From assembly GCF_013167455.1 (NCBI RefSeq), contig NZ_CP038328.1: a stretch of DNA of 64,000 bases; one strand, 5' to 3'. The stretch is from Escherichia coli O157:H7. Its GTDB lineage: Bacteria; Pseudomonadota; Gammaproteobacteria; Enterobacterales; Enterobacteriaceae. Below, one piece after another: positions 44,188 through 44,439 of this stretch. The translations under genes were made by a program, and so were the position numbers. The first letter of the stretch is position 1; the number at the start of each line of letters is the position of its first letter. The notes beneath the pieces are model-generated. The model saw nothing but the letters and a program-made list of their open reading frames with translations, ran no database searches and was not told the origin of the DNA.

Positions 44188-44369
44188 GTCGGCTCCTTGA
44201 AAATGATATGAAACATTGCATTTCATAATGCATAAAGGATGTCAGTATGATTAATTTAATATATTCAATAAGTTATGAATTAACTGAATTCTGAACGGTA
44301 CAAAAATGATGGTCATTAACGTTCAGCAAAAAATGGATTCGACACCCGTGTCGCAGGGGAAAGTGAGAA

Positions 44370-44385
44370 TGTGATCTTGATCACG
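44370..44385 (-). promoter_or_regulatory. CRP-like palindrome TGTGA-tcttga-TCACg upstream of hyfA
   Basis: 9/10 match to the CRP half-sites with correct 6-bp spacer, in the bcp-hyfA spacer about 190 bp upstream of the hyfA start. Confidence 0.45.
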
Positions 44386-44439
44386 ATAAGTGAGGTGTGC
44401 TGACCGCAAGCGCAGCCAGCACGGAATGGAGCAAAGTAA

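Follow-up and report, generated by a model that had tools for sequence, protein, structure and literature searches.

CRP-cAMP is known to modulate sigma54 promoters such as prpBCDE (with PrpR), glnAp2 and, when placed in E. coli, Rhizobium dctA, by which carbon status is linked to the sigma54 regulon, and at glnAp2 and dctA the effect of CRP is inhibitory. Because opening of the sigma54 holoenzyme requires an ATP-dependent enhancer-binding protein, CRP recruitment of the class I or class II type is excluded at the sigma54 promoter of hyfA (hyfAp), and a position of -160.5 is also far outside the usual activating positions of CRP. Optimal HyfR-driven expression of hyf-lacZ reportedly requires CRP-cAMP, and a dependence on crp and cya has been reported. 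The mechanistic interest of hyf lies in how CRP may aid an enhancer-dependent sigma54 promoter from a position upstream of the enhancer.

CRP binding in front of hyfA has been catalogued in several collections. RegulonDB, as reproduced in supplementary file 5 of Shimada et al., 2011, lists CRP as an activator of hyfABCDEFGHIJR-focB at -160.5 with the site TCTCGTGATCAAGATCACATTC, the SELEX-chip table of the same study on K-12 gives TGTGATCTTGATCACG in the bcp>/>hyfA spacer, and its Table 1 includes hyfA among the known CRP targets that were recovered by genomic SELEX. In ETEC H10407 a high-confidence CRP ChIP-seq peak was found at hyfA with the site CGTGATCAAGATCACA (Haycocks et al., 2015), which is the reverse complement of the 16-mer described below. 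Additionally, hyfR is counted among the CRP-cAMP-regulated genes in an EcoCyc-based enrichment in another paper. Literature searches on hyf in combination with cAMP or CRP gave no reports beyond those cited here.

We analysed a stretch of 64,000 nucleotides of E. coli O157:H7 (referred to as the window), in which a palindrome between bcp and hyfA had been predicted to be the CRP site of hyf. The window is inverted relative to K-12, with bcp and the hyf genes on the minus strand (Table 1). The 311 bases around the palindrome are 100% identical to strain CDC#03-98, where bcp and hyfA are the annotated neighbours, and they gave matches in 5424 of 5426 complete E. coli genomes. We conclude, with a probability of about 90%, that the palindrome is a high-affinity CRP-cAMP operator of hyf, located at -160.5 from the sigma54 promoter hyfAp, where CRP would act as a co-activator and make hyf catabolite-sensitive. 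It is the same feature as the K-12 hyfAp CRP site (RegulonDB/EcoCyc, -160.5) in another strain: the 16-bp core and its position are identical and the spacer is free of indels, whereas two flanking bases differ (TTATCG...TCTCAC in the window vs TTCTCG...TCTCGC in K-12) and the -24 box reads TGACAT instead of TGGCAT. The original prediction agrees with the RegulonDB activator entry, with SELEX-chip and with ETEC ChIP-seq, and the CRP ChIP that it had proposed as a check is available as the published H10407 peak at hyfA on an identical 16-mer. The assignment as CRP operator of hyfAp is correct and ordinary, being already known from RegulonDB, so the site can be labelled as such (centre -160.5) with confidence and no novelty is claimed for it. 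What is new are supporting details, namely the positional conservation of the CRP sites, the 32-bp spacing and the loss of the palindrome in a hyf-less E. coli genome that are reported here. The original prediction had missed the earlier cataloguing of the site and the altered sigma54 -24 box of the window strain. The in vitro and in vivo binding data were obtained with K-12 and ETEC, which have a core identical to that of the window strain. The site is linked to the crp/cya phenotype by annotation and position rather than by site-directed proof.

Table 1. Features of the bcp-hyfA region and of the hyf operon, with positions in the window.
Feature	Position	Strand	Remarks
CRP-cAMP site	22-bp frame 44367..44388; core 44370-44385	.	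Sequence, PWM, published data on identical 16-mer, conservation
bcp	44910..44440	minus	Stop at 44442-44440
Hairpin at bcp 3' side, GUGCUGGCUGC-GCUU-GCGGUCAGCAC	44397..44422	minus	Stable, 11-bp stem, GCUU loop, directly after bcp stop
Inverted repeat CGACACGGGTGTCG	44340..44353	minus	CGACAC-N3-TGYCG across genera; centre about -129.5; alignment A2
Second invariant block TGACCATCATTTTTGT	44300..44315	minus	TGACCATCAYTTTTGT across genera; centre about -90.5; alignment A2
IHF-like element CATAACTTATTGAA	44264..44277	minus	Centre about -53, between the candidate enhancer blocks and the promoter
hyfA sigma54 -24/-12 promoter	44229..44244	minus	TGACAT-CCTTT-ATGCA in the window; TGGCAT-CCTTT-ATGCA in K-12
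hyfA +1	44217	minus	Derived from RegulonDB -160.5
hyfA Shine-Dalgarno AAGGAG		minus	Followed by ATG at 44187
hyfA CDS	43570..44187	minus	205 aa, starts MNRFVVAEP...; ATG 44187-44185; first gene of hyf operon
hyfB	43570..41552	minus	
hyf operon, hyfA to focB	30558-44187		All ORFs intact

The core, TGTGATCTTGATCACG, can be read directly as TGTGA, a 6-bp spacer (TCTTGA) and TCACG, so that both half-sites are present with the spacing that had been described for them. It agrees with the CRP consensus TGTGA-N6-TCACA at 15 of 16 positions, and by direct reading the 22-bp frame GAATGTGATCTTGATCACGATA agrees with the textbook consensus AAATGTGATCTAGATCACATTT at 17 of 22. From the centre of the core (44377.5) to the hyfA ATG the distance is 190.5 bp, and 54 nt separate the bcp stop from the start of the core, which corresponds to the earlier placement about 190 bp before hyfA and just past the end of bcp. 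Exact matches to TGTGA-N6-TCAC were seen twice in the 64-kb window where 0.40 were expected, an excess that is weak on its own. A symmetrised CRP PWM was made from 106 ChIP-seq sites (ETEC table of Haycocks et al., 2015) with the hyfA site excluded. With this matrix, a scoring that had also been proposed at the outset, the palindrome reached 18.97 of 22.0 bits, which is the best match in the 64-kb window and higher than the score of 103 of the 106 ChIP-seq sites, only three of them reaching it. None of 200 shuffled windows contained a match of 18.97 bits (shuffled maximum 18.4 bits, mean shuffled maximum 13.7 bits), confirming that the palindrome is not a chance match.

The second-best match in the window, TGTGAGCGAGATCAAA (11109-11124, 16.2 bits), is the known guaB/xseA CRP site, given as TTTGATCTCGCTCACA in the ETEC ChIP-seq table (Haycocks et al., 2015), and served as an internal positive control for the PWM. 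Three further CRP-like sequences scored 13-14 bits: TTTGACGCTAATCACA (39052-39067) at the hyfE/hyfD boundary, CGTGATGGCGATCACC (26058-26073) and GGTGATGGTGTTCACA (45405-45420) within the gcvR ORF. Many real ChIP sites have scores of this order, yet these scores are also near the shuffle maxima (mean 13.7). Two GATC (Dam) sites fall within the CRP core at hyfA (44373-44376 and 44379-44382); by analogy with what has been described for other CRP sites, occupancy by CRP could leave the GATC sequences of the core under-methylated. In a paper on the methylome in long-term stationary phase, hyfR is among the changing sites and the bcp-hyfA spacer is not listed.

The same palindrome could be read as an FNR site (TTGAT-N4-ATCAA) responsible for the anaerobic induction of hyf. 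CRP and FNR operators share their dyad geometry and belong to one protein family, FNR PWMs pick up the hyf palindrome, and GTGATCTTGATCAC is only two mismatches away from the FNR consensus. The site GTGATCAAGATCAC (K-12 2599026, hyfA) was indeed predicted for FNR with a PWM score of 13.04 by Myers et al., 2013, and hyf is expressed anaerobically. However, both mismatches affect the bases by which CRP and FNR sites are told apart, where GTGAT-CTTG-ATCAC is of the CRP type, and the orthologous sites in Citrobacter and Kosakonia keep TCACA and not TCAA. Moreover, GTGATCAAGATCAC was classed by Myers et al., 2013 as a 'silent' predicted site as it had no FNR ChIP-seq peak in vivo, and the in vivo occupant found by ETEC ChIP-seq is CRP. 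The FNR reading, which had been considered the weaker one from the beginning, is so improbable that we set it aside in favour of the CRP operator.

To follow the CRP operator across genera, genome contigs were scanned for HyfA. This gave 45 loci, of which the six closest (64-71% HyfA identity) were analysed: Citrobacter amalonaticus, three Citrobacter spp. and two Kosakonia spp. Escherichia or Shigella loci were absent from the 45, the nearest being Citrobacter at 71% identity; possible reasons are that the source lineage is not part of the collection or that the search patterns missed it. All six closest loci have a bcp-sized ORF of 156 aa immediately upstream of hyfA, and each of their bcp-hyfA spacers has a CRP site 186-191 bp before the ATG, with scores from 15.8 to 18.7 bits (TGTGATCGCAATCACA, 18.7 bits; TGTGACTAATATCACA, 17.0 bits; TTTGACCGCGATCACA, 15.8 bits). 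In the alignment of Escherichia, Citrobacter and Kosakonia (alignment A2) the half-sites are kept while the 6-bp spacer and the flanks vary, a sequence pattern characteristic of selection acting on a dimeric operator. The CGACAC-N3-TGYCG repeat starts exactly 32 bp after the start of the CRP core in eight of eight sequences from the three genera, with no indel, and the 16 intervening bases show no conservation; from centre to centre the distance is 31 bp, or three helical turns. In more distant hyfA homologues (Atlantibacter, Providencia, Morganella, Serratia, Dickeya, Pectobacterium and others) CRP-like matches within 500 bp did not exceed 8.2 bits, which confines the footprint to the bcp-linked type of Escherichia, Citrobacter and Kosakonia. 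Among the 4297 E. coli genomes in which the hyf side of the spacer is present, at least 3967 keep the exact core, 416 of them with the flank variant of the window and 3551 with that of K-12.

Of 5424 E. coli genomes, about 1127 are without the hyf side of the spacer. In strain FCI1, where yfgO directly follows bcp, the whole hyfA-focB segment of about 13.8 kb is missing, with the hexamer TTCAGC present at both deletion end points (30523-30528 and 44322-44327 of the window). The spacer remnant of this strain (L004, 2953-3000) is degenerate, with about 19 bp gone including most of the palindrome, and it is far more diverged than the flanks, which are 98-99% identical. In this one hyf-less genome the loss of the palindrome is consistent with a function of the site that is tied to hyf.

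These comparisons bear on whether CRP could bind at hyfA without regulatory consequence, in which case hyf would be catabolite-sensitive by an indirect route. Many CRP sites found by ChIP or SELEX have no detectable transcriptional effect, and 34% of the ETEC peaks are intragenic (Haycocks et al., 2015). For a sigma54 promoter a CRP position of -160.5 is unusual, and as the GG of the -24 box is mutated in the O157:H7 lineage the site may be functionless in the window strain. Against this, three genera have kept the site and its exact spacing despite divergence of the intervening and spacer bases, the palindrome has been lost from the spacer remnant of hyf-less FCI1, and RegulonDB annotates CRP as an activator. 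We regard non-productive binding as highly improbable and retain the palindrome as a regulatory CRP operator.

Between the bcp stop and the CRP site a stable hairpin was identified, which is likely the 3' end of bcp; the CRP site would therefore lie outside the bcp unit. The hairpin has no T tail in the window, and the fold of 44325-44442, including the hairpin, has a z-score of -2.2. In Citrobacter and Kosakonia equivalent hairpins are followed by T-runs, ahead of the CRP site (alignment A2). An Rfam scan of 43900-44700 at a permissive threshold gave two chance-level matches only (E = 0.67) and no known RNA element.

Downstream of the CRP site, the spacer contains two blocks that are invariant in Escherichia, Citrobacter and Kosakonia, both of them poor matches to the published FhlA matrix. 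The inverted repeat at 44340-44353 scored only 5.6 bits with the FhlA PWM, and from its position and conservation we infer a candidate upstream activating element for HyfR/FhlA; the block at 44300-44315 would be a second candidate. Taken together, the two blocks are likely the HyfR/FhlA enhancer elements, as judged from sequence. A scan of the E. coli sequence had flagged CGACACGGGTGTCG with the following T-run as terminator-like. In Citrobacter and Kosakonia this hairpin is disrupted by an uncompensated T to C change, and the T-run is not conserved, so that termination is unlikely to be the conserved function of CGACACGGGTGTCG.

The palindrome itself might serve, instead of or in addition to CRP binding, as an upstream activating sequence for HyfR or FhlA. 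With the FhlA matrix given by Lin and Liaw, 2020 (13 sites only, consensus TGWC-RAWRAT-GWCA), the best match in the spacer is the palindrome (TGATCAAGATCACA, 9.6 of 16.4 bits), and the Citrobacter sequence TGACTAATATCACA reached 11.0 bits with the same small matrix. The distance from the sigma54 promoter is also enhancer-like. Yet C4 and G11, the two positions with the highest information in the FhlA matrix, are mismatches in E. coli, the matrix is tiny, and the scan of the spacer with it gave no convincing FhlA site. The pattern that is conserved across genera is the CRP-specific TGA...TCACA, the two invariant blocks are better candidates for the enhancer, and binding of CRP has been demonstrated by SELEX-chip and ChIP-seq. 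A role of the palindrome as HyfR or FhlA site is very unlikely, and the CRP operator with separate candidate enhancer blocks is the arrangement that we follow below.

Between the candidate enhancer blocks and the promoter a pattern scan found ATTCAATAAGTTA on the plus strand (44263-44275), with one mismatch to WATCAANNNNTTR and partly conserved in alignment A2. IHF ChIP-chip signal was present over the bcp-hyfA spacer in the study of Myers et al., 2013, where IHF and Fis signals overlap the region, and the element is a putative IHF site. A scan of 44100-44500 found no sigma70-like -35/-10 pair on the hyf strand, and one weak, chance-level sigma70-like match was seen on the plus strand at 44222-44251. 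A CRP-dependent sigma70 promoter was considered as a target and rejected, as the scan gave no pair on the hyf strand and inspection of both strands by eye showed no plausible -10 hexamer at the distances of class I or class II promoters. Given that the hyf strand has no sigma70-like promoter near the site, this leaves the sigma54 promoter as the sole evident target.

The sigma54 transcription start has reportedly been mapped 30 bp upstream of hyfA. The +1 at 44217 that follows from the RegulonDB position agrees exactly with this figure. In the window the second G of the GG in the -24 box (44239-44244) is changed to A at minus-strand base 44242, and the GC at -12 is present. The GG/GC pair of sigma54 promoters, with its 10-bp spacing, is therefore incomplete in the window, whereas it is complete in K-12, SX23, strain 81, Citrobacter and Kosakonia; the -24 box reads TGGCAT in all of these except for Kosakonia, which has TGGCAC. 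With an RpoN PWM hyfAp scored 3.4 bits in the window vs 12.0 bits in K-12, and in the matrix given by Lin and Liaw, 2020, the changed position is a G in 186 of 186 compiled sigma54 promoters. In K-12 the peak obtained by SELEX with RpoN holoenzyme in the bcp/hyfA spacer is the highest or second highest genome-wide. A 32-mer with the TGACAT variant was found in 138 genomes; of the 40 listed, most carry an O157:H7 or O157 label, EDL933 among them. Judging from these comparisons, hyfAp may be crippled in the O157:H7 lineage though the hyf ORFs are intact, and O157:H7 may carry a conserved CRP operator in front of a disabled promoter. The -24 change bears on the long-standing puzzle of the 'silent' hyf and is relevant to hydrogen metabolism in the O157:H7 pathotype.

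A mechanism can be proposed in which the enhancer-binding protein at hyfAp would be HyfR and, to a lesser degree, FhlA. CRP, located three helical turns upstream of the CGACAC-N3-TGYCG element, would bend the DNA, and this bend would stabilise or shape the HyfR enhancer complex, which would loop onto sigma54-RNAP at -24/-12, probably aided by the IHF-like site near -53. CRP would most likely assist HyfR/FhlA architecturally or cooperatively, by a phased bend, by direct contact or by both, and recruitment of polymerase by CRP at hyfAp is unlikely. Bending and cooperativity, the identity of the enhancer blocks and the operation of this arrangement in the O157:H7 lineage with its mutated -24 box are what we infer here, and the effect of CRP on hyf could also be partly indirect, through formate supply. 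The strict 32-bp spacing in three genera provides a concrete and testable architecture. A more far-reaching proposal, which we offer tentatively and consider possible but on the doubtful side, is that CRP is a fixed structural part of the sigma54 enhancer, acting by phased bending or contact in a mode distinct from class I-III, with the corollary that the GG to GA change in O157:H7 would silence hyfAp and leave the operator orphaned.

In comparison with the class I and class II CRP promoters that depend on sigma70, such as lac (-61.5), gal (-41.5) and malT (-70.5), the hyf site is bound by the same protein at the same kind of 22-bp operator, and it is nearer to the consensus than most operators of this kind. 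It differs in that its target is sigma54-dependent and the site is at -160.5; it occupies none of the positions -41.5, -61.5, -71.5, -82.5 or -92.5 of a sigma70 promoter, and formation of the open complex through alpha-CTD recruitment is ruled out. At prpBCDE, glnAp2 and dctA, CRP-cAMP likewise acts at a promoter that depends on an enhancer-binding protein. Unlike the sites at glnAp2 and dctA, however, the hyf site is annotated as activating, and it is located upstream of the presumed enhancer, with which it keeps a fixed phase.
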